A stretch of 36,187 nucleotides of DNA from a virus. Its lineage: Duplodnaviria > Heunggongvirae > Uroviricota > Caudoviricetes. Positions within the stretch are counted from its first letter, which is position 1. The number at the start of each line of letters is the position of its first letter. Under the pieces are notes generated by a model. It was not told the origin of the DNA. It made no database searches and saw only the letters and a program-made list of their open reading frames with translations. The DNA lies in IMG/VR virus record IMGVR_UViG_2778261630_000008, positions 1 through 36,187 of that record. One strand, 5' to 3'. Below, piece after piece: positions 9,544-36,187 of this stretch. The position numbers and the translations under genes were made by a program.

Positions 9544-11310
9544 ATGAACACCACACTGACACCCGCAGATCTCGATCCCCGTCGGCAGGCCATGCTGCTG
9601 TACTTTCAGGGATACCGCGTAGCCCGCATTGCTGAAATGCTGGGCGAGAAAGTTGCAACCGTTCACAGCTGGAAGAAACGCGACAAGTGGGGTGACTATG
9701 GGCCGCTGGATCAGATGCAGCTCACCACCGCCGCACGTTACTGCCAGCTCATTATGAAGGAGCACAAAGAAGGGAAAGATTTCAAAGAAATTGACCTGCT
9801 GGCGCGCCAGTCGGAGCGCCACGCGCGGATCGGCAAGTTTAACAATGGCGGCAACGAAGCCGACTTAAACCCTAACGTCGCCAACCGCAACAAAGGCCCG
9901 CGCCGTCAGCCGGAAAAGAATGTTTTCACCGATGAACAGATAGAGAAACTGGAAGAAATCTTCCATTCCTCCATGTTCAACTACCAGCGCCACTGGTGGG
10001 AAGCCGGAAAAACCAACCGCATCCGCAACCTGCTGAAGTCACGCCAGATCGGCGCGACCTTTTACTTTGCCCGTGAAGCCCTGATTGACGCCCTGCTTAC
10101 CGGACGTAACCAGATTTTCCTTTCTGCCAGTAAGGCACAGGCTCACGTCTTTAAGCAGTACATCATCGACTTCGCCAAAGAAGTCGAGGTGGAGCTGAAA
10201 GGCGATCCGATGGTGCTTCCTAACGGGGCCACGCTTTACTTCCTCGGTACCAATGCCCGCACGGCGCAGAGTTACCACGGCAACCTGTATCTGGATGAAT
10301 ATTTCTGGATACCGAAATTCCAGGAGTTGCGCAAAGTGGCTTCCGGTATGGCTATTCACAAGAAATGGCGACAAACCTATTTTTCCACGCCATCCAGCCT
10401 GACCCACAGTGCTTATCCGTTCTGGTCCGGTGCGCTGTTCAACCGTGGACGCAACAAAGCTGACAAGGTGGACATCGACCTGTCCCACAGCAATCTGGCC
10501 CCCGGCCTACTGTGCGCAGACGGGCAATACCGCCAGATAGTCACCGTGGAAGATGCGGTGCGCGGCGGCTGTAACCTGTTCGACCTCGACCAGCTGCGCA
10601 TGGAGTACAGCCCGGACGAATACCAGAACCTGCTGATGTGCGAGTTCGTGGACGATCTCGCGTCCGTGTTCCCGCTCAGCGAACTGCAGGCGTGCATGGT
10701 GGACAGCTGGGAAGTCTGGACCGACTTTCATGCACTGGCCCTGCGCCCGTTTGGCTGGCGCGAAGTGTGGATCGGTTATGACCCGGCAAAAGGTACGCAG
10801 AACGGCGACAGTGCCGGATGCGTGGTGGTGGCTCCGCCAGCCGTGCCGGGTGGTAAGTTCCGCATTCTTGAGCGTCACCAGTGGCGCGGGATGGACTTCC
10901 GCGCCCAGGCTGACGCCATCAAAAAACTGACCGAACAGTATAACGTGACCTATATCGGTATCGACTCGACCGGCGTCGGTCACGGGGTTTACGAGAACGT
11001 GAAAGCGTTTTTTCCTGCCGTCAGGGAGTTTGTCTATAACCCCAACGTTAAAAACGCCCTGGTACTCAAGGCCTACGACATTATCAGCCACCGCCGTCTG
11101 GAGTTTGACGCCGGGCACACCGACATTGCGCAGTCATTTATGGCAATCCGTCGCGCTACCACTGCCAGTGGCAACCGCCCGACCTATGAAGCCAGCCGCA
11201 GCGAAGAAGCCAGCCATGCCGATCTGGCCTGGGCAACAATGCACGCACTGTTTAACGAACCGCTGCAGGGCGAGTCCGCCAATACCAGCAATATTGTGGA
11301 GATTTTTTGA
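9544..11310 (+). CDS. P: terminase ATPase (large) subunit
   Basis: 588 aa; divergent from O as in P2; stop overlaps Q start (TGATG). Confidence 0.95.
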   Translation: MNTTLTPADLDPRRQAMLLYFQGYRVARIAEMLGEKVATVHSWKKRDKWGDYGPLDQMQLTTAARYCQLIMKEHKEGKDFKEIDLLARQSERHARIGKFNNGGNEADLNPNVANRNKGPRRQPEKNVFTDEQIEKLEEIFHSSMFNYQRHWWEAGKTNRIRNLLKSRQIGATFYFAREALIDALLTGRNQIFLSASKAQAHVFKQYIIDFAKEVEVELKGDPMVLPNGATLYFLGTNARTAQSYHGNLYLDEYFWIPKFQELRKVASGMAIHKKWRQTYFSTPSSLTHSAYPFWSGALFNRGRNKADKVDIDLSHSNLAPGLLCADGQYRQIVTVEDAVRGGCNLFDLDQLRMEYSPDEYQNLLMCEFVDDLASVFPLSELQACMVDSWEVWTDFHALALRPFGWREVWIGYDPAKGTQNGDSAGCVVVAPPAVPGGKFRILERHQWRGMDFRAQADAIKKLTEQYNVTYIGIDSTGVGHGVYENVKAFFPAVREFVYNPNVKNALVLKAYDIISHRRLEFDAGHTDIAQSFMAIRRATTASGNRPTYEASRSEEASHADLAWATMHALFNEPLQGESANTSNIVEIF

Positions 11311-12344
11311 TGGGAAAGAGTAAGAAGAACCGCGCTGCGTCGACGAAACAGATCCAGAATAAAAGCCAGACTTCAGCCGAAGCATTCAGCTTCGGTGATC
11401 CCGTTCCTGTTCTGGACCGCCGCGAACTGCTGGACTATGTGGAATGCGTACAGATGGATCGTTGGTACGAGCCGCCTGTGAGTTTCGACGGACTGGCGCG
11501 AACCTTCCGCGCCGCCGTGCATCACAGCTCACCGATTGCAGTGAAGTGCAACATTCTGACCAGCACCTACATCCCTCACCCGCTGCTCAGCCAGCAGGCT
11601 TTTTCGCGTTTTGTACAGGACTATCTGGTTTTTGGTAACGCCTACCTGGAGAAACGCACAAACCGCTTCGGTGAAGTTATCGCCCTTGAGCCTGCACTGG
11701 CAAAATACACCCGACGCGGGTTAGACCTTGATACCTACTGGTTTGTGCAATACGGCATGACTACGCAGCCGTATCAGTTCACGAAAGGCAACATTTTTCA
11801 TCTGATGGAACCGGACATCAACCAGGAGATCTACGGCCTGCCTGGTTATCTTTCTGCCATTCCGTCAGCTCTGCTCAACGAGTCCGCCACGCTGTTCCGC
11901 CGCAAGTATTACATTAACGGCAGTCATGCAGGCTTCATCATGTACATGACCGATGCAGCGCAGAACCAGGAGGATGTGAACAACCTCCGCAATGCGATGA
12001 AAAGCGCCAAAGGTCCTGGTAACTTCCGTAACCTGTTTATGTACTCGCCTAACGGTAAAAAGGACGGGCTTCAGATTATCCCGTTGTCAGAAGTGGCGGC
12101 GAAGGATGAGTTCCTGAATATCAAGAACGTGAGCCGGGACGACATGATGGCGGCGCATCGTGTGCCGCCACAAATGATGGGGATAATGCCTAATAATGTC
12201 GGGGGGTTTGGGGATGTGGAGAAGGCCAGTCGCGTATTTGTACGTAATGAATTAACGCCCTTGCAAAAAAGGCTACAAGAGCTGAACGACTGGCTGGGCG
12301 AAGAAGTGATTAAATTTACGCCCTATATTCTTTCAGAAGAATAA
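11310..12344 (+). CDS. Q: portal protein
   Basis: ORF-track start 11307 is TTG; ATG at 11310 gives 344 aa, the P2 gpQ length. Confidence 0.95.
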   Translation: MGKSKKNRAASTKQIQNKSQTSAEAFSFGDPVPVLDRRELLDYVECVQMDRWYEPPVSFDGLARTFRAAVHHSSPIAVKCNILTSTYIPHPLLSQQAFSRFVQDYLVFGNAYLEKRTNRFGEVIALEPALAKYTRRGLDLDTYWFVQYGMTTQPYQFTKGNIFHLMEPDINQEIYGLPGYLSAIPSALLNESATLFRRKYYINGSHAGFIMYMTDAAQNQEDVNNLRNAMKSAKGPGNFRNLFMYSPNGKKDGLQIIPLSEVAAKDEFLNIKNVSRDDMMAAHRVPPQMMGIMPNNVGGFGDVEKASRVFVRNELTPLQKRLQELNDWLGEEVIKFTPYILSEE

Positions 12345-12352
12345 TTCCGAAC

Positions 12353-13051
12353 TTATTTGTTTCTTCTTTGTTCACGCCTTGTCTTGGCTTCGATAAGGCG
12401 TTGAGGTTCAGTGTAAAGCCGTTCTAAAAAAAGATAGGTAAAATCTTCAAGATCCTCAGCAGCAGCTTTATCCAAAATACCTTCATGCGCTCCATCATTT
12501 CCGTCATCTTTAACGCATTCAGCTAGTTCCCTTAAAGCTTCAGGCAGTAGATGATTATCAAATAACCACTCCATTCTTAACCCTAGGCTTCTCCTTATTT
12601 TTTGCGCAGGCCCTTGCTCCCCATCAGGAAGAAGTCCTTTTGTGGCATAATCAAGGCAAAGCCTAAACATGGTTGCTGCTGCATTATAACAACCTATAGC
12701 CAAACATTTCGCCCCTTCCTCATATGCACTATTGATATGCTCAGGTAAGAACTCTGGTGGCTCCTCTACTGCTAAGTCTGCCGGTGATATAGGCCTAACA
12801 ACCTCTGCAACTTCCTTTAAGCCGAATATTCCACTTTCCCAATTATAGCCATCTAAAGTTTTATTTTTCGTTAAAGGTCTGCAAAGAAACATTGTCGTTT
12901 TATGACACTCTCGGCAAACACAATAGACCTCGTACTCGTATGTTTTACCCCCGCCCAATGCATTGTAAACCCTAGTGCAATTCAGCCCATTAACATCAAA
13001 CGCTATTTTTTGTGATCCACATCGTGGACAGTCATCTACTAACATAACCAT
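12353..13051 (-). CDS. cargo protein, 232 aa: N-terminal 4-Cys zinc ribbon plus helical C-terminal domain (possibly DUF4145-like); function unknown
   Basis: ATG 13051 with GGGAGGAG RBS; CPRC...CVCRECH cysteine pairs; more AT-rich than the phage backbone; inserted between the portal stop and cos. Confidence 0.6.
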   Translation of the reverse strand: MVMLVDDCPRCGSQKIAFDVNGLNCTRVYNALGGGKTYEYEVYCVCRECHKTTMFLCRPLTKNKTLDGYNWESGIFGLKEVAEVVRPISPADLAVEEPPEFLPEHINSAYEEGAKCLAIGCYNAAATMFRLCLDYATKGLLPDGEQGPAQKIRRSLGLRMEWLFDNHLLPEALRELAECVKDDGNDGAHEGILDKAAAEDLEDFTYLFLERLYTEPQRLIEAKTRREQRRNK

Positions 13052-13160: not shown

Positions 13161-13180
13161 GCTCGTATCCCCGCCACGCC
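13161..13180. other. cos site of the prophage (186-type variant)
   Basis: Minus-strand GGCGTGGCGGGGATACGAGC shares the first 13 nt with the 186 cohesive end as I recall it; the flanks align base-for-base with the satellite cos region at 27011..27060. Confidence 0.55.
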
Positions 13181-13225
13181 TGCCCGCTTTATGTAGTGGT
13201 TTTCATGCACCTGCATGATCTACGC

Positions 13226-13250
13226 AAAAGCCCGCCAGAACTGGGCGGGC
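13226..13250 (-). terminator. rho-independent terminator downstream of the 433-aa cargo gene
   Basis: GCCCGCC / GGCGGGC stem (13230..13236 with 13244..13250) followed on the minus strand by TTTT. Confidence 0.5.
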
Positions 13251-13475
13251 CTTAGCAAAAACGATCCTCAAACGATCATGCAATATCATGCACTAAAGAC
13301 ATGCACTAACAAGTGAAACTCCGTATCCAAATGACCACTTGCGAAACATTCGAATTAATAAAGCTAAAGATCTGCAGCGCTCGAGATGCGGTCGTTAGTT
13401 TAAGAAGCTTATTAGTGCATTAGAGTTATGAGATCGTTTGACATAGGGGCTCATAAGTGTTGCTACTTCTTATAT

Positions 13476-14777
13476 TTATTCGGTTAAATTTTTCAATGGC
13501 GCACCTGGAAGATGATGATGAACAAACTTACCTTTATATTCAATATGATAGCAAAGTAACATATAGAACAATGTTAGGCATGAGTTATAATTTTTAACAT
13601 TTTCTTGCCAAGAATGTTCTTTAAAATGTTTTGCGTGCGCAGATCTATTTCTTGCTTTATACCAAGTTGTAGCTAACTCTTCTGGAAAAAATCCTTTTTT
13701 TGCCATATTAAAAAGAGTTCCTTTGACCGAGGATCTTCCACCTTTTTCTAGCAATTGAATAATCGAAGATTTAACTCTCTCGTTTATTTCAAGGTTTTCT
13801 ATCACAGGCTTAGACTCACAACATAAACTGGAAAACTCAACATCTTCTATTTTAAAAGTAGAGTAAAATTTATTTATTACACCTTCAATTGAAACAGTTA
13901 GACTGAGAGTTTCATTTTCTAAATCAGATTGATGAGCATTAAATATCTTTCTCCAATAATAGTAAAAGGTTTTATCAGTCTCGAATTTTTTAATGTATGC
14001 TTGCGAAAATTGCACCCATTCATTTAGATAATATGGAGCTCTTTGAGGAATAAAAGTCATCAGCCTCTGTTTTTCTTTATTATCAATATGCTTAAATATC
14101 AATAACCTACTGTCATTCCCTTGCCACAACACTAAAGCAGGATTGAGTAGAACCCCAGATGCAACGGACAATGAATCTAGAATACTTTTAGCATATAAAT
14201 AAGAAAAATCATCATCAGAATCAAGACAAATCCTAGTGTATTTATCCTCTAAAAGAATGCTAACATTTATATTATTCAACGAAAATACGGATCTCGTCCT
14301 ACGCTTCCCTTCCTCACCTAAGTCTTGAAATTCATTACAAGGGATATTAATTTTTTGCGGGATGAAAAATATTACTTTATGTTTTTTAAAATCCCCATCT
14401 ATTTTTCTTTTTATTTCATAAAGCTCACAATCAATGCTTACCCCTTGTTGTGAAGCATTGATATTTACATATGGGTCAACATCTTTTGCTTGCCATAAAT
14501 ACCCATTCAAATCAATCGCATTCATAGAAAAAAGATATTCACTACCGATGATTTCTCCATAATCAAGATGATTATATGTTGGGCATGTGCTAAATTGAGC
14601 ATCAGTTTCTTTATGTAAGAACTTTAGATGAATTTTATTATTTTTATAATAAAAAAATCCAGAACCTGTAAACATTTTTGGATTTTCATTAGTTTGTTGT
14701 GTGAGAGTCACCTCAATTAATTCATGAGTAAATGAACCAGCCAATAGTTCTTCAATTTTTTCTTTAACAATGTTCAC
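13476..14777 (-). CDS. cargo protein, 433 aa, strongly AT-rich; C-terminal HEPN-like R-N-x3-H motif; candidate anti-phage / abortive-infection effector
   Basis: GTG 14777 with AAGGAAGGA RBS; motif WYKARNRSAHAKHF near the C-terminus; sits at the cos-to-gene-A accessory locus (old/tin position of P2); composition contrasts with the backbone. Confidence 0.7.
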   Translation of the reverse strand: MNIVKEKIEELLAGSFTHELIEVTLTQQTNENPKMFTGSGFFYYKNNKIHLKFLHKETDAQFSTCPTYNHLDYGEIIGSEYLFSMNAIDLNGYLWQAKDVDPYVNINASQQGVSIDCELYEIKRKIDGDFKKHKVIFFIPQKINIPCNEFQDLGEEGKRRTRSVFSLNNINVSILLEDKYTRICLDSDDDFSYLYAKSILDSLSVASGVLLNPALVLWQGNDSRLLIFKHIDNKEKQRLMTFIPQRAPYYLNEWVQFSQAYIKKFETDKTFYYYWRKIFNAHQSDLENETLSLTVSIEGVINKFYSTFKIEDVEFSSLCCESKPVIENLEINERVKSSIIQLLEKGGRSSVKGTLFNMAKKGFFPEELATTWYKARNRSAHAKHFKEHSWQENVKNYNSCLTLFYMLLCYHIEYKGKFVHHHLPGAPLKNLTE

Positions 14778-15034
14778 TAACTATCCTTCCTTCATATATA
14801 ATATCAACAATCATCACCACATCTTATATCCACTTTTCCTAAGTTTCAAACTAATCATGTTATAAGGCTCAGTTTGATTTATACATTTTTATTCTCAATT
14901 GAGTTTTAGCAATGCCCGCTTCTAATACACTGCTGATGATCACTTATCAAAGCGATCACGACATCTAACACCTCATTTCACTCGTTGTTCTATTTTATCC
15001 CCATCAGAATGAATCTTCTGGGGAGCAACGTTTC

Positions 15035-15268
15035 TTAATGCAGCCAGCTGTCGTCTTCCCACACCTTCTGCATAATTTTCATCACTTGTTTTCTTTCTTC
15101 ATCCAGTTGCAGTCCGGTTAGTTCCACACCGTTAGAGCTACCTTTGCGAATGCGAATTACCGTTTTGGGATACAGGGGGCGCAGATTGCGGTAAAGCTCG
15201 GATTCAAGGGCGTTCAGGGTAGACTGGCTAATCTTCTGCTCTTTATCGATCATTATTTCAATGCGCAT
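15035..15268 (-). CDS. DinI-family protein
   Basis: ATG 15268 with GAGGTGA RBS; 77 aa (MRIEIMIDK...VWEDDSWLH) resembling DinI as recalled; second gene of a LexA-box operon. Confidence 0.8.
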   Translation of the reverse strand: MRIEIMIDKEQKISQSTLNALESELYRNLRPLYPKTVIRIRKGSSNGVELTGLQLDEERKQVMKIMQKVWEDDSWLH

Positions 15269-15278
15269 AAAAGTCACC

Positions 15279-15467
15279 TCAGCTGATGACATCCATTGAG
15301 CGGTTGTATTCGTGGCTTCTGATTTTTGCCATGAGTTCATCAGTCAATTCAGAAACCCACTGCAGAGCCAGCCCCTTCTCTTCATCACTACACTCACTAG
15401 CCGCTACAAGCTTAAGAAAAAAATCAATGCGCTGGAGCTTCAAAGACTCCAAAAAATAGTCCTGCAT
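15279..15467 (-). CDS. small SOS-operon protein at the Tum (antirepressor) position of 186
   Basis: 62-aa ORF, ATG 15467 with AGGAGGAA RBS, ~40 bp downstream of a LexA box; function inferred from position only. Confidence 0.5.
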   Translation of the reverse strand: MQDYFLESLKLQRIDFFLKLVAASECSDEEKGLALQWVSELTDELMAKIRSHEYNRSMDVIS

Positions 15468-15619: not shown

Positions 15620-18034
15620 TTAATACAGGTTCCGCCACTTATCATCTTCCTGCAAACGCTGGTTCCGATAGAAGACACGCAGGCCTGCTCCTGACGGAAT
15701 ACTGCCGCCGCGAAGGAGTAAATCGACCTCTTTCTCGCTGCCATCAAATCCTCTGGACTTCAGTTCATAGACGAGCTGCTGTCGCTGATGGTCTGTAATT
15801 CGCTGTTTGTAGTCTTTACGCCGTTTCGGTTTCACCTGGCGTAACCTTGCAGCCAGTTCCCGGCGCTCTTTTTTGCTCATACTGTGCAGGTAATCGTGCA
15901 ACTCCTTGTCATTCATACGGGTAATATCCGTTCTGGAGTCCCCATCAGCTGATTTGTCTTTCCCTTGTTGGTTCAAATTTTCAGCAAGGGGACAGTTATT
16001 GCCACGAGTCCAAGGGGCGCAAGCGCCCTGGTCGGCTGCCGCCTCCTGAACGTCAACGGCCTTACGAACCATTTTCCACTTCACTGCATGAGTGCAGATC
16101 TTGCCCTCTGCAATGGGTGACCAGATGCCATAAATACGAATACCGTGATCGCCATAGGCGGTTGGCTCTTCGTTGATTTCATAAGCGGTTCTGATGAGGT
16201 GATATTTGCGGGGAACCAGTACGCCGCCCTGCTTCATGATGTAGGTGGCAAAACAACCAGCATCAGCAGCAGCCAGGATGGCATCAAGGCGCGGGTTATC
16301 CAGTACCGGCGCACCTGCTTTTTTGTCACCCTGTTGCCTTGCCGCCTGACCAGCCAGCAATCGCAGTTCACGGTAAGCCTGACGCCCCGGAATGCCAAAG
16401 AAGCGGAATTGCTGAACACGATGCAGAGACGCCCAGGCATTAACATATTCAGCGTTATCACGCAGGGATTTACCCGTTTCCTTACTGATCTCGCCAGCCA
16501 GACCACGCCCGTCAATATTCTTACTGATATATTTCGCAATGTAGCTTGTCGGCGTTCCTTTGCGCGGGTTTATCAGCTCAGACTTAAAGCGTGGCCCCGT
16601 GTTATTGCCCAGCTCCTCGCGGTCTTCTCGGATGGCAAACTTACGCAACAATGCAGTAATGGCGCGGCGGTCTTTTTTGCGCATGAAACACAACAGGTGC
16701 CAGTGAACTGTGCCGTCATGATGCGGCTCAGCCACCCGCACGCCATACCAGCGCAACCCGGCTTTGTGCATAGCCTTACGAAATGCAGCAAACATGCCGA
16801 CCAGATAATCGCTGCTTTGTCTTACTGTCGCGTTGGTCCAGGTCGGGTTTGGCCTGCCGTTATTTAGCGTGGAATGGAAACGTGACGGACAGGTGATGGT
16901 GTAGAAAACGGCGCAGTCACCACGCATTTCCGCGATAAGCTCCAGGCCTTTAACACAGGCCATCATCTCGTTGCGGCGATGCGCCGGGTTGCTGCTGCTG
17001 GCGTTTACCACATCCTCCATGTTCAGCGTGTCGCCGTCTTCGTTCACCAGTTCATGAGAACGGAAAAACTCCAGCGACTTACGGCGCTGCTCACGTTTAT
17101 GCATCACGGCTTCATAGCTGACATAGGGAGATGCTTTTTTGCTGACCAGGCAGACAGCACGCAACTGCTCTTCCCGCCATTCGCAACGCATCTTCCATAA
17201 TTTCCGATACCACCAGTCGGCGCACAGCATACGCGCCAGCGAACCCGGAATGAGTTCATAAGGCACAGGTTTGCGGCGGTTTCTTTTCCGGCGGAGTTGC
17301 TCAAACGCAGGCGGTATGACATCCAGTCGCAGGGTTTCTGCAGCCACCTTTTCCCATGTCTTGCGGATTTCTTCTGGCTTAACATCATCGGAGGCGTACA
17401 AATCACCACAAGCGGCATCAAGACACATGCTCATATGCGCAGCGACAAGGGTAGACAGGCGTTTCACCTGATCCTGACTCATTTCAGGCAGGATCAGCAG
17501 ACCGTCCAGCCCTTCATGGCTTGCCATAAAACGAAAAGATGCAGATAGCTGGCTGTCGCGTACATGCTCCAGTCGTTCCAGACATGGCTTAATCGTCTCA
17601 CGCAAATAGCGGGAATAAGCCTTTGGCCTGCCCAGGCTGCTGAAATATTCAATACGTTGCATCAGCGGCTTGCTGATATGGGAAGGCTGGGCGTTGACGT
17701 CAGCCAGAATGACCATATCCGGATTAAAACGCTGCTGCTCATGCGCCAGCTTTGCCCGGCTAATGAGCTTATCCTGCTCCATTTCGCGTTGGACAGGATC
17801 ACGGGATTCATTAAAGAAATAACGCTCCCAGACCTGATCACTCAGTGCCTCGCGGCGCAGTTGTTCCTGCTCGTTATCGGTAGCGTACAGAGTGATCAGG
17901 TTTGAAAGCGCAGAAACCGGCGCAACTTCCGCCGGGTCCAGATAAGGGTTAATGGCCTTTTTCGGGCTGTTCCATGAGAATGCTGCGGCGACCTTGTTAA
18001 AGCCGCTGCAGTTGTTCATATCAGCATGGCTCAT
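15620..18034 (-). CDS. A: replication initiation endonuclease (rolling-circle initiator)
   Basis: 804-aa ORF, convergent with Q across cos as in P2; start overlaps dam stop (ATGA). Confidence 0.95.
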
Positions 18035-21712: not shown

Positions 21713-22753
21713 ATGACCATCAGAAAACAGCCGAACGGAAAATGGTTGTGTGAGTGCTATCCCAATGGACGCAATGGTAAGCGCGTGCGTAAGCAATTTG
21801 CTACCAAAGGCGAAGCCATTGCGTTTGAAAGCTTCACAATGGAAGAAGTGAACAAAAAACCATGGCTAGGGGAAAAGGAAGATCGGCGACATCTATCAGA
21901 ATTAATTGAGCTGTGGTATTCCCTGTATGGTCAAACACTCGCAGACCCCAAGCGCCTCATGGCGAAACTTAGAATTATCTGTAATGGTCTAGGCGATCCC
22001 ATCGCCTCAGAACTGACAGCTGGTGAGTTTACGAAATACCGCGAAGCACGGTTAAAAGGTGAAGTACGAAATGAAGATGGCACGCTTATGTCGCCAGTTA
22101 AGCCCCGCACGGTAAATCTTGAACAGCGCAACCTATCATCTGTTTTTGGTACACTGAAAAAGCTGGGCCACTGGTCAGCCCCCAACCCGCTTGCTGGGCT
22201 GCCAACATTTAAAATTGCTGAGGGTGAATTGGCGTTCCTGACCCCGGAAGAAATTAAACGTCTGCTGGATGCCTGTGCTGATTCTCAAAGCCCCAGTCTG
22301 CTGATGATTGCAAAAATATGCTTGGCCACCGGCGCACGCTGGAGCGAAGCCGAAAACCTACAGAGTCATCAGGTATCAAAATACCGTATCACTTATACCA
22401 AGACTAAAGGAAAGAAAAACCGAACAGTGCCTATTTCAAAGGATTTATATGAAGAACTGCCTAAGAATAGGGGAAAATTATTTACACCTTGTAGGAAAGC
22501 TTTTGAACGTGCGGTAAAACGAGCTGGTATCGAGCTACCAGAAGGGCAATGCACACACGTATTACGACATACATTTGCAAGTCACTTTATGATGAATGGC
22601 GGAAACATACTGGTGCTGCGCGATATTCTGGGCCATGTCGATATAAAAATGACAATGATTTACGCCCACTTCGCTCCCGACCATCTGGAAGATGCTGTAA
22701 CCAAAAATCCTCTTGCTAACCTTGGATGGAGAAAATTAGAAAGTGCTTGTTAA
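21713..22753 (+). CDS. int: tyrosine integrase
   Basis: 346 aa with C-terminal R...H.LRHT...Y catalytic region; 4 bp after cI stop. Confidence 0.9.
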   Translation: MTIRKQPNGKWLCECYPNGRNGKRVRKQFATKGEAIAFESFTMEEVNKKPWLGEKEDRRHLSELIELWYSLYGQTLADPKRLMAKLRIICNGLGDPIASELTAGEFTKYREARLKGEVRNEDGTLMSPVKPRTVNLEQRNLSSVFGTLKKLGHWSAPNPLAGLPTFKIAEGELAFLTPEEIKRLLDACADSQSPSLLMIAKICLATGARWSEAENLQSHQVSKYRITYTKTKGKKNRTVPISKDLYEELPKNRGKLFTPCRKAFERAVKRAGIELPEGQCTHVLRHTFASHFMMNGGNILVLRDILGHVDIKMTMIYAHFAPDHLEDAVTKNPLANLGWRKLESAC

Positions 22754-22859
22754 TAACTATATCCAACAATACCCATGGATATCGTACTTACTTATCATAA
22801 TATATTTTATATATATATGCCTTGAATTATATCTATGCGTATCAAAAAAAGGCTTTAAC

Positions 22860-23789
22860 ATGGATGAAAGGCCATTAACAAGTCAATACTTATTTAAACA
22901 ATCACTTAGGATTCCTGTATTTTCAGCGATATACTTTGGTATATTTTCCTGGCTTGGACATTCCCCTCAATTTGATAGTGAGGGCTTTAATAATTTCATT
23001 GCAATTAGCAAGCTTCCTATCGCCTTACTTTCTTTGTCCATACCATTTGTTGCTGTCGTAGCAAACATACACCGCACAGTTCAAACAAACCGACAAATTG
23101 AGGAAACCAAGCAAAAGAATCTATCTGATAGCTACTATAGCCATCTAAAGTTCGTTACTGATTATTTCACCAATTTACCTAACAAAACCATTAAACGCGA
23201 ACGTCATTATGGTACTAAAGAGATAAGTTATAAAATTAACTACCCAATACATCTATATAGATATATTTTCATAAATAGCTCACCAGAGAAGGGACGGCCT
23301 AAAAATACAGATAAAGAATACATACGTGAAGTAAATAATCACTGGGTTGATATACTAAAAAACCTAGAGAAGATACTTTCATCTAATCGTGGCTCTCAGT
23401 TTGACGAAGTTTTAATCCGTCAAATGCAATCTCTTCATTCAATAGAAAAACACTTATCCGAACTTAATCGAATGCTTTGCCTAACTCCCATGGAGTTAAA
23501 TGAACATGCAACTTTATACTTTGATGGATATGAAATGATTACTAACTTCATGTCCAGCATTGAACTTGGCGATACAATTGAAACCTACTTCAAATTTACC
23601 ATTGATATTCTTGATATTACCGATAATTTCCTTTCATTCAAGGATGATGGCTCGTCTGGGCAAATCATTATACTAGCAAGATTACTGAAAGATAATAATC
23701 CAGCTATCTTTGATGAAATTGTAACAAACAAAGGGAAGGCTCAACCTTCGTTGACCTACAATGGCGACAGATTGGCGACAGAACATTAA
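22860..23789 (+). CDS. cargo protein, 309 aa, AT-rich, two N-terminal TM helices; function unknown
   Basis: ATG 22860 after an AT-rich promoter-like stretch (TATATATATA); hydrophobic segments IPVFSAIYFGIFSWLG and IAISKLPIALLSLSIPFVAVVANI; lies between int and the att core. Confidence 0.6.
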   Translation: MDERPLTSQYLFKQSLRIPVFSAIYFGIFSWLGHSPQFDSEGFNNFIAISKLPIALLSLSIPFVAVVANIHRTVQTNRQIEETKQKNLSDSYYSHLKFVTDYFTNLPNKTIKRERHYGTKEISYKINYPIHLYRYIFINSSPEKGRPKNTDKEYIREVNNHWVDILKNLEKILSSNRGSQFDEVLIRQMQSLHSIEKHLSELNRMLCLTPMELNEHATLYFDGYEMITNFMSSIELGDTIETYFKFTIDILDITDNFLSFKDDGSSGQIIILARLLKDNNPAIFDEIVTNKGKAQPSLTYNGDRLATEH

Positions 23790-24103: not shown

Positions 24104-25297
24104 GTGGCAAGAACGACACGCCCCCTGACCAACACAGAAGTGCTGCGCGCAAAAGCGTTAGAAAAGGATCTTACATTGCATGATGGCGATGGTCTTTTTC
24201 TTCTCGTTAAAACGAACGGTAAGAAGTTATGGCGTTTCCGTTATCAACGTCCGACAACAAAGCAGCGGACAATGATGGGGCTAGGTGCCTTCCCAGCCAT
24301 ATCGCTTGCAGATGCCAGGAGATTAAAAGCTGATTATCTTTCATTATTAGCCAATGGAATTGATCCGCAAATTCAAGCGAAAGTGGCAGAGGAACAGCAA
24401 CAAATCGCGCTTGACAGTATTTTTTCAACAGTCGCCGCTAACTGGTTTCTGCTCAAAAGCAAAAGCGTTACCCCTGATTACGCAAAAGACATTTGGCGTT
24501 CACTTGAGAAAGACGTATTCCCCACTATCGGTGAGATCCCCGTTCAGAAGATCAAAGCCCGAACATTAATTGAAGCTCTTGAGTCCGTCAAAGCTCGAGG
24601 GGCGCTAGAGACCGTTCGTCGACTGGTGCAACGCATTAACGAGATAATGATTTATGCGGTTAACACCGGTTTGATTGATGCAAATCCAGCATCAGGTGTT
24701 GGTATGGCATTTGAGAAACCTAAAAAGAAAAATATGCCAACACTACGCCCAGAGGAATTGCCTAATCTGATGCATTCATTAACAATGTCAAATCTATCTG
24801 TCTCTACTCGATGTCTCATTGAATGGCAACTCCTAACTCTTGTCCGCCCTTCTGAAGCTTCAGGCACTCAATGGGCTGAGATCGATTTAGATGCGAAACT
24901 CTGGATAATTCCAGCTGAAAGAATGAAAGCAAAACGAGAACACATTGTTCCTTTGTCCCCCCAAGCTTTAGACATTTTGAATATAATGAAACCCATCAGT
25001 GCTCATCGTACACATGTTTTTCCTAGCAGGAGTGACCCCTTAAAACCAATGAATAGCCAAACGGCAAATGCCGCATTAAAGCGAATTGGCTTCGCTGGCA
25101 AACTAGTAGCCCATGGTCTACGTTCTATTGCAAGCACCGCCTTAAACGAACGTGGTTACAATCCTGATGTTATAGAAGCAGCTCTTGCTCATAGCGATAA
25201 AAACGAAGTACGTCGCGCTTATAATCGCTCGGTTTATTTAGAAAAACGTAAGCAACTAATGAATGATTGGGGGCAAATTGTGCACCCCCAATCATAA
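24104..25297 (+). CDS. int: P4-family tyrosine integrase (IntA-like)
   Basis: 397 aa, GTG start with AAGGAG RBS; strong resemblance to CP4-57 IntA / P4 Int as recalled; ~185 bp downstream of the ssrA core. Confidence 0.9.
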   Translation: MARTTRPLTNTEVLRAKALEKDLTLHDGDGLFLLVKTNGKKLWRFRYQRPTTKQRTMMGLGAFPAISLADARRLKADYLSLLANGIDPQIQAKVAEEQQQIALDSIFSTVAANWFLLKSKSVTPDYAKDIWRSLEKDVFPTIGEIPVQKIKARTLIEALESVKARGALETVRRLVQRINEIMIYAVNTGLIDANPASGVGMAFEKPKKKNMPTLRPEELPNLMHSLTMSNLSVSTRCLIEWQLLTLVRPSEASGTQWAEIDLDAKLWIIPAERMKAKREHIVPLSPQALDILNIMKPISAHRTHVFPSRSDPLKPMNSQTANAALKRIGFAGKLVAHGLRSIASTALNERGYNPDVIEAALAHSDKNEVRRAYNRSVYLEKRKQLMNDWGQIVHPQS

Positions 25298-25346
25298 AAA
25301 ACGATTTCAGTCCAAGCAACTATTAAAATTCAATAGATTGGGGACT

Positions 25347-26931
25347 TTATGTAGATTTAACATCAAGATGTTCTCCACAGTATCCGATAATTATTTTACG
25401 TTTACTTCTATCAACCCAAAAGTGGATTCTTATAGTTTCAGACTTGGAGCGGGCTGTTCCTATACCAACGTGTTGGAACATCTTTATTTTTTGACCATTA
25501 TAGTCAAACTCTCTCATTTTAGATAATGTAGCAGATCGCTCTACCGTCTCTGATTCATTTGCTGAATAAGCATCACCAAGAATATCTTTGGCCTTATTAT
25601 CTCCATTTTCAAGATACTCAAGAAGATATTCTGTACAAAGTTTATATAATAAATAAATCAATCTATGATTGTGTTTGAATTTCGATGAGTTCCTCGCTGA
25701 AGAAAATGCTGATTTAAGAATCTCAACATTATTAGGGATTAGGATTTCTAATAAACTCAAAACGGACTCAGGGTTTAACCTATTGCTAATTAAAGATATT
25801 ATCTTTTCAACATCAACATCACCATCAGTAGCTTTTCCATGGTATTTCCTAATATCGTATTTTAACCTTTCTAAGTCTACTTCTATTTTATTTTTTTCAA
25901 AGACAACTGCATCATGCTTTGCATCCAATTCCTCAATCCTTTTTAAATAATCAAGCTCTAATTCTTCACTAGCAGCCTTAAACTCCTCAAACTCTAAGAG
26001 GACTTCATCGAGCAAAGCTTCATACTGAGCACCATCTTTTAACTCATTTAATCTCTGCCTAAAAGAAATATTATCATCACGCTGTCTTTTGGCACGAACA
26101 TTAGCTGGTGATAAATGCAACTTTTTATTATAGCCATTAAAAGCATGCGTTATTACTGATAATATATAATTATTAATAGGAACATTACCCGCTTTAATTT
26201 CATCAACTTGCTTCGGGAGAAAAAGTTTTGTTCCTATATACCCTGACTTATTCATTGGGTAAATAATATTTATTGCCCCCCCCCCAAGATGAATAGTGTC
26301 TTCCAAGTAATCGTTCCATTTCCCAAGAGTCCATTTTACCACTTGTTGCAACAACCTGAGCAAGCCCAATAAGTTGCTCCTGTAGTTTTTCAGGTATAAC
26401 AGGAAATCCATCATTACCTTCACTAATAAAAACTAGCGGGTAGGTCCTGTCATCCCTAGAAATTTCATGCATAAGATACTGAAAGTCGCCATACTGACTT
26501 TTAATATAATCCACTTTCTGGCCGATAACATCCAGATCGAATACACAATTCCGTTTCAAATATGATACCAGAGATGGACGAGTAGCAATTGGTTTTGCAT
26601 CAACCATAGTGCTAACATCACTTATTTCTAACAATATAGATATAAACGTGCTTCCTTTTTCACGTCTAATTCCAATTTCTGTAATCCATTGTCTACCGCT
26701 CACATTCCTATCAGGATGAGTGTACATTATGGAATATATTTTAGGTTCCATTCTATCAGCCGTGTAGGTTCTAACATAGGCTCGCTCTAAATTCCAATCA
26801 CGCCGCGAAAGTAGCTCATCTGTTGATAGGCGAATATTAGCAACCCTATTAAGCCAACCACACACAGAACGCACTACGCTAAAAAAACTATCTTCACCGA
26901 TGCAATTAAACGAATTAACATAAACTAACAC
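25347..26931 (-). CDS. satellite hotspot gene, ~528 aa if read through a G10 tract; as written split into 227-aa and 358-aa overlapping frames; function unknown
   Basis: GTG 26931 with AAAGGAGA RBS; frame A (26931..26248) and frame B (26423..25347) overlap by 176 bp with the homopolymer inside the overlap; loss of one G fuses them; AT-rich; between int and cos. Confidence 0.55.
26276..26285. repeat. homopolymeric tract, C10 on plus strand (G10 on coding strand)
   Basis: Ten consecutive C at 26276..26285, at the junction of the two frames of the hotspot gene. Confidence 0.95.
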
Positions 26932-27019
26932 TACAATCTCCTTTCACTCATTTAAAGGGGAGGCTGAAAAGGAGTTATCTTATATACTTTTTGTAAATTA
27001 TTTCAATCTTTTGCGCGCA

Positions 27020-27038
27020 GTGCTTTCCCCGCCTCGCC
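27020..27038. other. cos site of the satellite (P2/P4 type)
   Basis: GTGCTTTCCCCGCCTCGCC is the reverse complement of GGCGAGGCGGGGAAAGCAC, the 19-nt P2/P4 cohesive end as I recall it. Confidence 0.8.
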
Positions 27039-27140
27039 CGCCCGCTTTGCGGGGCGGTTTTAATGCAGTTTCACTGACACGCTCAGGCCGCGCCGGGAAT
27101 GGCGCGGTCTGCAGAAAATGAGGCAGGAAAACGCATGCAA

Positions 27141-27172
27141 AGCCATGCACCTTATCGATGCATGGCTTTTTT
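27141..27172. terminator. stem-loop terminator between cos and psu
   Basis: AGCCATGCA / TGCATGGCT 9-bp stem with T-run on the plus side and A-run on the other; could terminate the sid-delta-psu transcript. Confidence 0.45.
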
Positions 27173-27202
27173 CAGTAAAAACAGGCGGATTTTCGGGGAA
27201 TT

Positions 27203-27775
27203 TTACACAGACTGACGTGATGCCAGTTGCGCACTTTTACGCGAAAAAATCATGTTCTGCGCAGGGGTGAATTTTTCACGGCTGTCATCCACCGAAGCCG
27301 CGTCAGGCCTGAATCCGATGGCCGTTAAAATGTCGCTATCCTGTGCGGAATAATTAATTTTTTCCCCCTTCGCAAGCCAGGACAGAAGGGCTTCACGCAG
27401 GGCATCTGTGGTACGCTGTATGGCACAGTTTCGGGCAATGGCCGTCAGCTCACTGTAGCCCATCAGCTCCGGTGCCAGTGCCGCCGCCAGTGCTGTACCG
27501 TGCTGCTGCATAAAATCATTCAGCCGGTCGCGGATGCTGATGTGCTGAACGGCTTCATGCGAACGAATATAACGACCGGCGGCCTGATTCACCTGCCATT
27601 TTCTGACTTCGATAATATTGCGTAATTCGTCCAGGCGGCTGACGTTTCTGCCTTCTCCTGACAGAAGCCGCAGATATTCCTGTTCGGCCGCTGCCAGCTC
27701 ATTTTTGCGTTGCAGCCATGCTGCTTTGTTATTCTGACAGGTGTCAAAGGCCTGCTGTAAGGCTGTGCTTTCCAT
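27203..27775 (-). CDS. psu: polarity suppression protein Psu (capsid decoration / Rho antagonist)
   Basis: 190 aa, the P4 Psu length; last gene of the sid-delta-psu operon next to cos. Confidence 0.9.
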   Translation of the reverse strand: MESTALQQAFDTCQNNKAAWLQRKNELAAAEQEYLRLLSGEGRNVSRLDELRNIIEVRKWQVNQAAGRYIRSHEAVQHISIRDRLNDFMQQHGTALAAALAPELMGYSELTAIARNCAIQRTTDALREALLSWLAKGEKINYSAQDSDILTAIGFRPDAASVDDSREKFTPAQNMIFSRKSAQLASRQSV

Positions 27776-27848
27776 CGTTATCTCTTTCTCATCATGCTGA
27801 AGAATAAAAATACGGTGTGCGGCGACGGCCGGGGTTAACCGGCAGCCC

Positions 27849-28349
27849 TCATTCCAGACGCAGCGAATATGATTGTGTTTTTAACCGTACTGGCGGCAGT
27901 TCCTGTTTTTCATGCAGGCGTTCTGCCAGTTCGTCCGGCGTGACCGGGCGGACAATGAAGCGGTTGATGGTCTGAAGCGTTTTAAACACCAGACCACAGC
28001 CCGGATCCGTGCACACATAAAAACGCTCGGTGACTTCCTGAGACAGACGCCGCGATGTTCTTGACAGTGCAAGGCCTTTACATCTCCGACAACAATATCC
28101 GGTAACAAGCATTCTTTTCGGGCGTTTCATACTGCCGGAGGCCGACGTCAGTGAATCGAGGTATCTCTGTTTGCCTGAAATGTATTCCATTCCTGAATCT
28201 TTACAGTCAGAGAAAAAGCTTTCACTCGCTTCAAATGTCGCAGAGCAATAAATATTCCGGCACTGTGCAATCATTATCTTGGTGCCATCGTCCATGAAAT
28301 GTGCGCGACGGGTGTGAGCAACATGTCCACACGACGGGCAGTAAATCAT
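27849..28349 (-). CDS. delta: Delta late-gene transactivator (duplicated Ogr-type zinc finger)
   Basis: 166 aa with two CxxC...CxxC units (CPSCGH... and CCRRCKG...); start overlaps sid stop. Confidence 0.9.
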   Translation of the reverse strand: MIYCPSCGHVAHTRRAHFMDDGTKIMIAQCRNIYCSATFEASESFFSDCKDSGMEYISGKQRYLDSLTSASGSMKRPKRMLVTGYCCRRCKGLALSRTSRRLSQEVTERFYVCTDPGCGLVFKTLQTINRFIVRPVTPDELAERLHEKQELPPVRLKTQSYSLRLE

Positions 28350-29080
28350 GACAGCAGTCCTCTGGCCTTAAGCTCTGCTCCCTGCTGGTCTATTTTGTCC
28401 TGCCACACCTTGCGCTGTGCCGGTGTGCCTGCCACCTCATAATCCATGTGCGGGAGTGTTGCCGCTGACAGTCCGGTCAGCCGGAGAACCGGCTCGCCGG
28501 TGAGGCTGATTTGCATCTGTTTTATTTTCTGTTCCAGCGATGATTTCACCTGCTGCATGACAGCTTTATCGGGTGCGACGTAGCCCTGATGGCCGGTGGT
28601 GTTGGCGAGCGGATTTTCCTGTACCAGGATGCTCAGATGCATTGCCCGGACAAGCGCCTCACAGGTTTCATTCAGGGCGTGTTCCAGCTCATTCTCTGCA
28701 TACAGACTCAGAAGGTGATGATGTGCCTTCCGGTAGGCGGTGGCCGTGCTGTCACACGCCCCTTTCAGGCGTTCACGTTCAAAATTCAGCACCACGGCCA
28801 GATTGTCATATTCCTGTACCAGCTCCCGGCGTGCCACGCGCTCAATGTGGCGCTGTTTCAGCTCGTCGCTCAGGACACCTCCGGCTGCACGAAAGGCCGT
28901 GCGCCAGTCGTCAGCGTCGTTTCCGTCGGCCTGCGCCAGCGCATTTTTTTCCTGCTCTGCCCGTTCAATAGCCGTGACGGTCTCATCCATCAGGCGGGCG
29001 TTCTCAAGATGAGCGACTCTGGCCTTTTCCAGTTGTGCCAGCGCGGGTTGCAGATATTCAGGGATGGTGTTGTCAGACAT
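28346..29080 (-). CDS. sid: Sid external scaffold (capsid size determination)
   Basis: ORF-track start 29098 is GTG; ATG 29080 with GAGGAG RBS gives 244 aa, the P4 Sid length. Confidence 0.85.
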   Translation of the reverse strand: MSDNTIPEYLQPALAQLEKARVAHLENARLMDETVTAIERAEQEKNALAQADGNDADDWRTAFRAAGGVLSDELKQRHIERVARRELVQEYDNLAVVLNFERERLKGACDSTATAYRKAHHHLLSLYAENELEHALNETCEALVRAMHLSILVQENPLANTTGHQGYVAPDKAVMQQVKSSLEQKIKQMQISLTGEPVLRLTGLSAATLPHMDYEVAGTPAQRKVWQDKIDQQGAELKARGLLS

Positions 29081-29114
29081 TTTCCGGCTCCTCGTCACTT
29101 CAGGTTAAGAAAAT

Positions 29115-29132
29115 TGTGACGTACACCGGACA
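29115..29132. promoter_or_regulatory. TGT-N12-ACA activator site upstream of sid (Psid-type late promoter)
   Basis: TGT 29115..29117, 12 nt, ACA 29130..29132, just upstream of the sid start. Confidence 0.5.
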
Positions 29133-29249
29133 ACAACACGACGCATTGCAGATGTGCCAGCCCTGACACAGGAGACTCATCCTCAGACCGGCAAGCCAGG
29201 AAAAGGTCGCAGGAAAAACCGGCTTACTGTTTGTTTTTTTATATTTTAC

Positions 29250-29363
29250 TGTTCACCTCTGTTCACCATAAGAAAAAAGATAAGTAATACAGTAAGTTAA
29301 ATGGTGAACAATCGCAGTAATGACTGTTCACCGTCTGTTCACCACTGTTCACCACTGTTCACC
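29250..29363. repeat. iteron cluster (TGTTCACC octamers), ori-like
   Basis: Six direct TGTTCACC copies (29250, 29260, 29325, 29336, 29346, 29356) plus one inverted GGTGAACA (29303); this octamer is the alpha-protein binding repeat of P4 ori/crr as I recall it. Confidence 0.7.
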
Positions 29364-29521
29364 CGTTGATGGGCTTTTTGTGCTGTTTATTACTTTTTAT
29401 TTTTATTAATTCACTGAAATAAATAAGAAAAAACAATTTGTATTTCACTATAATTTTTTCCAGCCCCTTCCAGAGCGTTTTAAAGCTATCTGGCGCTGAT
29501 GTGCAAAAAATACACAGCCAT

Positions 29522-29539
29522 TGTAAGACAGCCTGAACA
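29522..29539. promoter_or_regulatory. TGT-N12-ACA activator site upstream of vis (PLL-type promoter)
   Basis: TGT 29522..29524, 12 nt, ACA 29537..29539; ~110 bp upstream of the vis start. Confidence 0.45.
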
Positions 29540-29641
29540 AATCCCCCCTGTTGCGTCTGCTGAAAATATTCACAAAATAAAGCGCTACCCGAAGCCGGAC
29601 GGACTTATCCGGTGCTGTATGGACATTAACGAGGTAGCCCG

Positions 29642-29908
29642 ATGCAAGCTGTTTTTTCTTCCCCGTCTCCCGCTCCTGTAACGCCACTGATTCCGCTGCC
29701 GGACATCACGCAGGAGCGTTTTTTACGTCTGCCGGAAGTGATGCACCTGTGCGGCCTGTCACGCTCGACCATCTATGAACTCATCCGTAAGGGGGAATTT
29801 CCGCCGCAGGTGAGTCTTGGCGGTAAAAATGTGGCCTGGCTGCACTCTGAAGTCACTGCATGGATGGCCGGGCGCATTGCCGGACGCAAACGGGGGTACG
29901 ACGCATGA
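29642..29908 (+). CDS. vis: Vis / AlpA-family excisionase-type regulator
   Basis: 88 aa, the P4 Vis (orf88) length; AlpA-like HTH ([29 protein letters not shown]); GAGG RBS. Confidence 0.8.
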
Positions 29909-30036
29909 TGATGCCTGTTCTGCAAAAACTCCCTTTTTCTGGCTTGCCTTTTTCCGGCATTTGCGGATATAGTTTTTCCGCTGCCGCAAAATCGGCAGCC
30001 GGGCGTGAGAACCCGTGTAACTCGAAGGCGACATAT

Positions 30037-30058
30037 GACGCGCCATGCGTCTTTTTTT
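30037..30058 (+). terminator. short hairpin with T7 tract (candidate attenuator/terminator in the vis-to-orf66 gap)
   Basis: GACGC / GCGTC 5-bp stem (30037..30051) followed by TTTTTTT (30052..30058); weak stem. Confidence 0.35.
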
Positions 30059-30297
30059 GTGTCGCAATCAACGCCACAGAGCGCCAGATTATGGTGTGGC
30101 GTGTGGTTTGCCGTGCAGGTATGATCCTGTTCGCAATCACATGTTATGCCACTGAGTCAATGGTAGCTCAGGCGGGGCAGCCTCCGGGCTGGCCGGTATT
30201 CTTCGAGGCCGGTATTCTCACCCCCGTCTGGGCTATCGCCATCGAGCGTGAGAACTCCGGCGATAGCAGTTATTTGCTACTCGAAGGAGGCTGCCTT

Positions 30298-30495
30298 ATG
30301 GCTACAACCCTTACCCCCTCACACCCTGAATTTGTCTTTGTGTTTGCCGCTGTCCGTCGCGCAGACCGTCATCCCCGTATCTGCATGCTTCGCACCGTCG
30401 CCGGTGATGAACGCAGTGCCCGCCGTTCCCTTGTCCGTGACTATGTGCTCTCCCTTGCTGCCCGTCTGCCGGTGATGGGGGTGTCCCGTGCGTAA
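30298..30495 (+). CDS. small left-operon protein, 66 aa (kil position of P4?)
   Basis: ATG 30298 preceded by GAAGGAGG; the longer upstream extension of this frame looks non-coding and low-complexity. Confidence 0.4.
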
Positions 30496-30775
30496 TAAAA
30501 AAGCCCCTCAGACCGTCTCAGCGCGTCATGACGCCCGTGAACACCTCAGCATTGAGGCTTACCATAAGCTCAACCGCGCCAGCGCCGTATCCCAGTTTGT
30601 TGGGGGTGATTTGATTCACCGTGAACTCTCCGGCCTGCATCAGCTCTACATTCCGCATATTTTCAGCTACCTGAATGAGGATATTGATTTTGTGCTGAAT
30701 GAGCTGAAAGCCAAAGGCCTGTGCCGTGATTTTCTCGCCCAGCAGAAAGACCGGGGAGACAGGACGCATGTTTGA
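30488..30775 (+). CDS. small left-operon protein, 95 aa (epsilon position of P4?)
   Basis: GTG start overlapping the previous stop; size and order relative to orf151/cnr/alpha match my recollection of P4 epsilon; no sequence-level confirmation. Confidence 0.4.
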
Positions 30776-31223
30776 TTTTCCCCAGCCCGGTGAGATTTAC
30801 CGTTCTGCCGGTTTTCCCGATGTGGCCGTGGTCGGCATTCTGGAAGACGGTATTCCGTGGGAAATGCCGTACCGCTGCCCGGACATTGTCTGGAACCCGT
30901 ACCGCCGTAAATTCAGTATCCTTGTGCGTATCCTCGCTGACGGACGCACCACAGACATCCCGCTGGGGCGTTTTCTGCGGGAATTTACCTGTGACCGTCC
31001 TGACCTGTTTAAACGCAGCCCCGTAAACCGGCATGCGGTACTGAAAGAAATGGCCGGAGACCCGGAATTACAGAAATGGCGGGAGAAATATCTGGATATT
31101 TACCCGCAGGCCCCTGTTCCGGTCAGCCGGGCGGCACCGGTGGCGCGGGAATGGCGGGAAATTCCCCGCACGGAGTCTGACCCGGAAATCACCCCGGATA
31201 ACAGTTACCGCAATTATCTGTAA
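30768..31223 (+). CDS. left-operon protein, 151 aa (P4 orf151-like)
   Basis: ATG 30768 ([12 protein letters not shown]...) with GGAG upstream; length and position equal P4 orf151 as recalled. Confidence 0.55.
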   Translation: MFDFPQPGEIYRSAGFPDVAVVGILEDGIPWEMPYRCPDIVWNPYRRKFSILVRILADGRTTDIPLGRFLREFTCDRPDLFKRSPVNRHAVLKEMAGDPELQKWREKYLDIYPQAPVPVSRAAPVAREWREIPRTESDPEITPDNSYRNYL

Positions 31224-31358
31224 TTAAAAAACGACACCCGAAAAATTAAATGTGCGTATTCGCGCAGGGATACGCACGTCTTCAGGAGACGCAGATATGC
31301 CTTATCAGTTAATGCAACCGGCACGGAATGCAGTCATCTGTCACAGGGAGGAAAACAA

Positions 31359-31679
31359 ATGAAAACACCCTTACCGCCCGTCTTACGCGCTGCCCTTTAC
31401 CGTCGCGCTGTCGCCTGTGCCTGGCTGACCGTGTGCGAACGTCAGCACCGCTACCCGCATCTCACCCTTGAGTCACTGGAGGCGGCCATCGCCGCTGAGC
31501 TGGAAGGCTTTTATCTGCGCCAGCACGGTGAGGAAAAAGGGCGTCAGATAGCCTGTGCCCTGCTGGAAGATTTAATGGAATCCGGCCCCCTGAAGGCCGC
31601 GCCGTCGCTGTCCTTTCTCGGGCTGGTTGTGATGGATGAACTCTGTGCCCGTCACATAAAAGCGCCGGTACTGCACTGA
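31359..31679 (+). CDS. left-operon protein, 106 aa (P4 Cnr/orf106-like)
   Basis: ATG with GGGAGGAAAA RBS; 106 aa immediately upstream of alpha. Confidence 0.55.
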
Positions 31680-31693
31680 AGGAGAACAACACC

Positions 31694-35110: not shown

Positions 35111-36187
<1,077 letters not shown>

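Follow-up and report, generated by a model that had tools for sequence, protein, structure and literature searches.

The gpA-gpQ interval adjoining cos, which in P2 itself holds old and tin, is a defence hotspot in which P2-like phages harbour a reservoir of anti-phage systems (Rousset et al. 2022, PMC9122126). Single-protein defence with a HEPN effector is already known from prophage hotspots. The ApeA proteins studied to date form decamers that cleave tRNA anticodon loops or phage RNA, and the activation pocket of Ec2ApeA binds 5'-phosphorylated deoxydinucleotides (bioRxiv 10.64898/2026.01.26.701840, 10.64898/2026.03.20.713152); the substitution R521A abolishes ApeA defence (bioRxiv 10.64898/2026.01.26.701840). 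Here, we analysed a window of 36,187 nucleotides (nt), positions 1 to 36,187 of the IMG/VR virus record IMGVR_UViG_2778261630_000008. The window carries a P2-like prophage, and the cargo of its cos-adjacent gpA-gpQ slot is a gene at 13476..14777, on the minus strand, encoding a protein of 433 amino acids (aa). A predicted beta-rich N-terminal domain is joined in this protein to a C-terminal domain resembling HEPN ribonucleases (RNases), and the gene is a good candidate for single-gene phage defence. What is new is best called a family with an unrecognised N-terminal domain and without a database model.

The 433-aa gene and its HEPN-like motif

An earlier note, made from the DNA sequence of this window, had singled out the gene as an AT-rich one between cos and the SOS operon and gene A. 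The gene is indeed set apart from its surroundings, with a guanine-plus-cytosine (GC) content of 0.308 versus 0.547 in P+Q and 0.530 in gene A (30.8% in a backbone of 53-55%), and it lies between a dinI-like gene and gene A on one side and, on the other, a site that we take to be cos-like from its resemblance to the cos of P2 and 186. An in-frame TAG stands two codons 5' of the GTG start (14775..14777), which coincides with the N-termini of 12 homologues, and the ribosome-binding site attributed to the gene was recovered as a Shine-Dalgarno sequence (Table 1). Two promoter-like sites fall within the 257-bp AT-rich gap after dinI, a count below shuffle expectation. The terminator previously placed at 13226..13250 was read as a hairpin with a U-tract ~220 nt beyond the stop codon, folding with its flanks at -22.4 kcal/mol; it was missing from the output of a simple terminator scan. 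In RefSeq the product is listed as WP_089624026, 'hypothetical protein'.

Near the C-terminus the protein carries, as the earlier note had pointed out, an RNxxAH motif of the HEPN form, located at residues 376-381 within WYKARNRSAHAKHF (residues 372-385). The note had also cautioned that one such match is not very improbable by chance, and rightly so: in a single sequence the motif is weak evidence, because shuffling the 433-aa protein yields R-[polar]-x3-H in 12% of cases and some Rx4-6H in 72%. Its conservation, as read from the family alignment, is not weak. A first protein search gave 14 clusters with 55-99% identity, and tblastn uncovered a distant relative on a Pseudomonas veronii plasmid, a frameshifted relic. 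Once this relic had joined the query alignment, 31 further clusters were recovered (~455 aa, mostly Pseudomonas, 20-27% identity to the query). The family comprises 44 clusters in Enterobacterales and Pseudomonas, with cluster names reading 'hypothetical', and the conservation counts rest on a 44-sequence alignment that spans two subfamilies ~20% identical. Just 21 columns are invariant in this alignment, down to ~20% identity, and these include R376, H381, E298, G299, W275, W372 and L403-F404-Y405, while N377 and A380 are nearly invariant. The N-terminal domain has a conserved loop, IPxN...GE, at residues 146-155. A second, less canonical R-x5-H that had been proposed upstream (WRKIFNAH) is literally present at R276..H282, but R276 is replaced by L or V in 12 of 12 close homologues, and the motif was rejected as a HEPN site.

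Two structure predictions were obtained, one from a 13-sequence alignment (predicted local distance difference test score, pLDDT, 78; predicted template modelling score, pTM, 0.75) and the other from the 44-sequence alignment (pLDDT 86.8, pTM 0.83). The models concur in a beta-rich region at residues ~17-230 and an all-helical region at 248-411. Helices are predicted at 286-304 (H1, with E298), 313-327 (H2) and, following an insert, 366-379 (H3) and 390-411 (H4), an order that matches the layout of the HEPN domain given for ApeA and HepT. The core of the superfamily, a four-helix up-down bundle (H1-H4), is present in the models, as is its Rx4-6H with a polar residue at H3: in both models H3 ends in R-N-x-x-A-H, with the motif at its C-terminal end. 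Structure searches with the C-terminal region matched TTHA0636, YutE, HI0074 and the Sacsin HEPN domain, and with the second model only also Cas13bt3, over ~100-110 residues at 2.5-3.3 Å. Weak Foldseek matches of the N-terminal domain to a PilZ-like sensor of cyclic di-GMP, a split-barrel flavin reductase and a tail-tube/Hcp fold were confined to the first model and disappeared with the second; the PilZ motifs RxxxR and D/NxSxxG are absent from the domain, and all three assignments were rejected.

The fold check that the earlier note had called for came out in two parts: a HEPN-like helical bundle was found in the predicted structure, and sequence profiles gave no significant hit to any curated HEPN family of Pfam, PADLOC, NCBIfam or PHROGs, where no model of any kind matches the 433-aa protein or any of the 44 members at E<=10. 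A PDB sequence search with the 433-aa protein likewise gave no match, in keeping with the original view that it could be placed in no named family. The C-terminal domain might alternatively be a generic bundle of helices, or a HEPN-like module that lacks catalysis, with the conserved arginine and histidine serving structural or ligand-binding purposes and the gene being an accessory moron of unrelated function. We consider this explanation very improbable.

We favour the view that the 433-aa protein confers anti-phage immunity on its own and that its gene is a moron of the cos-proximal (old/tin) hotspot. The C-terminal HEPN domain of the protein would be a latent, metal-independent endoribonuclease with an active site built from R376, N377 and H381, probably together with E298 of helix 1, and HEPN-HEPN dimerisation most likely completes this site, as it does in other HEPN RNases. 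In the uninfected lysogen the nuclease may be kept off by the beta-rich N-terminal domain, which would switch it on upon sensing an infection cue, either a protein of the phage or a small molecule that derives from infection. Cleavage of tRNA, rRNA or mRNA would then halt translation and block the superinfecting phage. The location of the gene, its occurrence as a solo cassette, the contexts of its homologues, the conservation, the decay of some copies and the precedents from other systems all count for a role in defence, and we regard the full chain from sensor to HEPN RNase as, on balance, probable.

Distribution and turnover of the family

An identical (100%) gene was found in 9 of 5426 complete Escherichia coli genomes. 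When the 1.8-kb segment 13200..15000 was used in megablast, its cos-proximal end was present in 650 E. coli genomes and the full length, including the gene, in 9. At 90% identity the protein falls into a cluster of 407 members, drawn from E. coli and Salmonella, many of those listed being partial Salmonella sequences. No relatives were detected by tblastn in 50,697 deposited phage genomes or by pattern scans of IMG/VR, and literature searches for the accession WP_089624026 and for signature peptides returned nothing. Prophages carrying the gene are scored as without known defence at that slot, current annotation tools being blind to the family.

The family is a solo cassette that is mobile between defence hotspots. 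An E. coli homologue occupies the P2 G-FI (Z/fun) hotspot, the Pantoea homologue lies at the primase end, on the edge of a P4-like satellite, and the Cronobacter homologue is inserted between the integrase and tail fibre genes of a lambdoid prophage. The Dickeya homologue resides in an integrative island with toxin-antitoxin (TA) modules (RelE/MqsA-like, YjhX). In Pseudomonas, the P. cerasi homologue is found beside IS110, a SNIPE nuclease and an integrase, another in an island beside a umuC-like gene, and a third among HNH and PD-(D/E)XK genes and one for a 1723-aa protein with a faint AAA_16 match. Across the eight contexts compared there is no shared neighbour and no partner gene. The GC content of the homologues is 0.31-0.35 versus 0.43-0.58 in the flanks (Pseudomonas, 0.42 versus 0.53-0.57). 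Two copies have decayed: that on the P. veronii plasmid LT599585 (locus L011, 4157..5522) contains two frameshifts, and its annotation shows a pair of hypothetical genes, and that on a Salmonella Poona plasmid (locus L012, 6001..7014) is truncated by IS3 after residue ~332, with loss of the catalytic motif. We infer that this turnover by decay is of the kind typical of costly defence genes.

The same distribution bears on the alternative that the HEPN nuclease was selected for a role other than lysogen defence, such as competition between mobile elements, addiction or stabilisation, or the lytic programme of the phage itself. Residence in many element types, among them a TA-rich region of a conjugative plasmid and the Dickeya island, would agree with such a role, as would the P4-like satellite beside the prophage and the position of the gene downstream of the dinI-like gene on the same strand, where read-through on induction is possible. 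However, an antitoxin-like partner is conserved in none of the eight contexts, the gene has a ribosome-binding site, promoter-like sites and a terminator of its own, and experiments have found anti-phage systems enriched at the positions where it resides (PMC9122126; bioRxiv 10.64898/2026.02.27.708500). We judge this alternative improbable, and lysogen defence remains the role that we favour.

Features of the window and neighbouring elements

Table 1. Features of the 433-aa gene, its surroundings and the neighbouring satellite (coordinates refer to the window; ORF, open reading frame).
Feature	Coordinates	Strand	Remark
Terminase ATPase	9544..11310		reads toward the cos-like site
Portal	11307..12344		reads toward the cos-like site
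cos-like site GGCGTGGCGGGGATACGAGC	13161..13180	-	sequence reading
Intrinsic terminator-like hairpin and U-tract, GCCCGCC-CAGTTCT-GGCGGGC-TTTTG	~13225..13254	-	between the 433-aa gene and cos
Coding sequence, 433 aa, candidate defence gene	13476..14777	-	GC 0.308; WP_089624026
C-terminal all-helical HEPN-like domain, residues ~268-415	13533..13976	-	predicted structure
Rx4H motif R376-N-R-S-A-H381, predicted catalytic site	13635..13652	-	end of helix H3
Helix-1 block L291-N302 (LSLTVSIEGVIN), LxLxVxIEGxxN	13872..13907	-	E298-G299 invariant
N-terminal beta-rich domain, residues 1-245, presumed sensor/regulatory	14043..14777	-	predicted structure
Two sigma-70-like promoter matches, TTGAAA-17-TAAGAT and TTGATA-16-GATAGT	14780..14849	-	consensus only
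Shine-Dalgarno sequence AAGGAAGGA	14784..14792	-	6 nt 5' of GTG; sequence reading
dinI-like gene	15035..15340	-	upstream of the 433-aa gene, same strand; then a 62-aa ORF
Replication gene A	15620..18034		upstream of the 433-aa gene; Dam methylase also on that side of cos
P4-type integrase	24104..25297		satellite
Exact P2/P4 cos 19-mer GGCGAGGCGGGGAAAGCAC	27020..27038	-	satellite
Alpha primase, 777 aa	31694..34027		satellite

On the portal side of cos lies a 232-aa gene (12353..13051, minus strand) that encodes an N-terminal Cys4 zinc ribbon followed by a DUF4145 HEPN domain (Pfam DUF4145, 4.5e-7; PADLOC PD-T7-4, 1.2e-6; phrog_1305). Its domain architecture is that of RAZR (ring-activated zinc-finger RNase, PMC13017515), and two HEPN-type genes thus flank cos. 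A functional tie between the 433-aa gene and this neighbour was considered and rejected, since Rousset's P2 table lists the product of the latter (WP_000245245) alongside other cargo, and the family of the 433-aa gene has members that lack such a neighbour.

A complete-looking P4-like satellite (24104..34027) is found ~1.3 kb past the P2-like integrase (21713..22753), and host csiD starts after it, at 35210. The two elements, helper and satellite, form a tandem integration. In addition to the features in Table 1, the satellite carries psu, delta, a sid-like gene and Ash. The cos-like core of the prophage differs at several positions from the 19-mer of the satellite. The int-psu hotspot of the satellite (25347..26931, minus strand) contains two overlapping ORFs of 227 and 358 aa, which match the N- and C-terminal halves, respectively, of the PADLOC candidate HEC-07 (~553 aa; E 2.3e-18 and 2.1e-8) and look like a frameshifted or split HEC-07; the best match of the 358-aa ORF is NsnC (7.2e-15). 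At the junction of prophage and satellite, a 348-aa ORF (22743..23789, plus strand) overlaps the end of the P2-like integrase and shows a weak match to the PADLOC '2TM effector' (E 2e-4) and none in Pfam.

Comparison with ApeA, RAZR and other systems

The 433-aa gene shares with old and tin of P2 its genomic slot and the idea of prophage-borne exclusion (PMC9122126). Old, however, consists of an ABC ATPase and a TOPRIM nuclease and is unrelated to the 433-aa protein. Tin acts through the single-stranded DNA-binding protein of T-even phages. The HepT/MNT type VII toxins (PDB 5yep, 7ae2, 8xdj) differ in being minimal HEPN proteins of ~130 aa that are neutralised by an adjacent MNT nucleotidyltransferase, whereas the 433-aa protein has a fused 245-aa domain and no conserved adjacent gene. 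The 'Putative HEPN' P2 gene tested by Rousset et al. (pFR103, E. coli S88) encodes another protein, and the new P4 systems of a 2026 preprint (Crouga, Bandua, Aernus, Toga, Reve and Hailong) have architectures that do not fit.

ApeA (Ec1ApeA, WP_000706972; Ec2ApeA, WP_032180471) resembles the 433-aa protein in being encoded by a single gene with an N-terminal regulatory region and a C-terminal HEPN domain with R-N-x3-H, in a helix-1 signature (…L-x-L-x-[IV]-[AS]-[IL]-E-[SG]…), and in residing on mobile elements with no partner gene, as is the case in all eight contexts of the present family. The 433-aa protein could be a very divergent member of the ApeA group, belonging either to the ApeA-NTD1 plus HEPN(Apea) architecture, which Anantharaman et al. 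2013 defined by computation, or to the ApeA of Gao et al. 2020, known from experiments, and would then cleave anticodon loops or phage RNA upon activation by a ligand, as ApeA does. The UniRef label of the exact protein, 'ApeA N-terminal domain-containing protein', points in this direction, with an origin that may be a machine prediction. So does the description of ApeA-NTD1 as ~300 aa of mostly beta strands with conserved aromatics and a fused C-terminal HEPN domain (PF18862/PF18739, PMC3710099), a plan that is shared here by description only. Ec2ApeA, too, is encoded by a P2-like prophage as a solo gene, and both P2 and P4 hotspots have HEPN_Apea cassettes among their listed contents. We know of no experimental study of the ApeA-NTD1 plus HEPN(Apea) architecture.

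For sequence comparison, full-length Ec1ApeA and Ec2ApeA were taken from E. coli genomes, together with six diverse homologues encoded on plasmids; BLASTP, hmmsearch in both directions, shuffles and hhalign yielded one modest match overall. The hidden Markov model of the C-terminal domain of the family scored 8.5 bits against Ec2ApeA, with the match falling exactly on helix H1, and 2-3 of 2000 shuffles equalled or exceeded this score; the ApeA helix H1 sequence LLNLWIAIESLIPD is the only stretch that aligns with the helix-1 block L291-N302. BLASTP placed RNRSAH on the catalytic R521..H526 of Ec1ApeA, weakly (E=0.055). Yet 7 of the 8 ApeA sequences had no match at the homologous position, the reverse search was inconsistent, and hhalign of the 44-sequence family against the 8-sequence ApeA alignment gave a probability of <1%, over the whole length as well as for the HEPN regions alone. 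In a local library, the Pfam models ApeA_NTD1 and HEPN_Apea matched 0 of the 44 members at thresholds up to E=10 (Ec1ApeA and Ec2ApeA themselves have no HEPN_Apea match there at E<=1), and the ApeA model of PADLOC and the apeA model of NCBIfam gave no match at E<=1 or E<=10.

The overall build of the proteins differs as well. The studied ApeA proteins are ~580-600 aa long and mostly alpha-helical, with a catenin-like N domain and a PafA-like Mid domain that make up the ligand pocket together with HEPN, whereas in the 433-aa protein residues 1-230 are predicted to be predominantly beta strands, and the distance from H1 to the catalytic arginine is ~50 residues shorter. Because neither a family-model match nor helical N and Mid domains were found, membership in ApeA is not established from these comparisons, and we think it unlikely. 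If the family were a remote relative after all, the ApeA HEPN core would have been combined with two entirely different sensor architectures. Concerning the location of Ec2ApeA itself (locus L013, 3105..4856, E. coli SC516), its solo gene is situated between baseplate gene V and morphogenesis gene S of the prophage; this V-S interval is a third P2 moron slot, and in locus L007 it is filled by an unannotated 261-aa gene.

Returning to the interpretation as a distinct defence protein, RAZR/PD-T7-4 offers a comparable case of single-protein HEPN RNase defence that stays off until its non-HEPN part senses a phage trigger (PMC13017515), but the 433-aa protein has neither the Cys4 zinc ribbon nor DUF4145, and its N-terminal domain is different and much larger. 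By analogy, ApeA, RAZR/PD-T7-4 and DS-11 may be seen as precedents of the same logic. More tentatively, we propose that the 433-aa protein and its homologues constitute an undescribed single-gene immunity family that is evolutionarily distinct from ApeA and RAZR, in which a beta-rich N-terminal domain without a PDB match would represent a new kind of infection sensor attached to a minimal HEPN RNase, and whose cassette would have moved between both P2 hotspots, the border of a P4-like satellite, lambdoid prophages and chromosomal defence islands. If active, the family would add one more entry to defence catalogues along with a new sensor fold. It also provides a compact protein of 433 aa, with a clear catalytic motif to mutate and natural variants of 20-78% identity with which to map the trigger. 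HEPN RNases fused to diverse sensors, as in ApeA, RAZR and DS-11, are emerging as a major class of bacterial immunity, and the informative difference among these proteins is the mode by which infection is sensed. The 433-aa protein is best read as working like ApeA or RAZR, with a different N-terminal domain in the place of the sensor.
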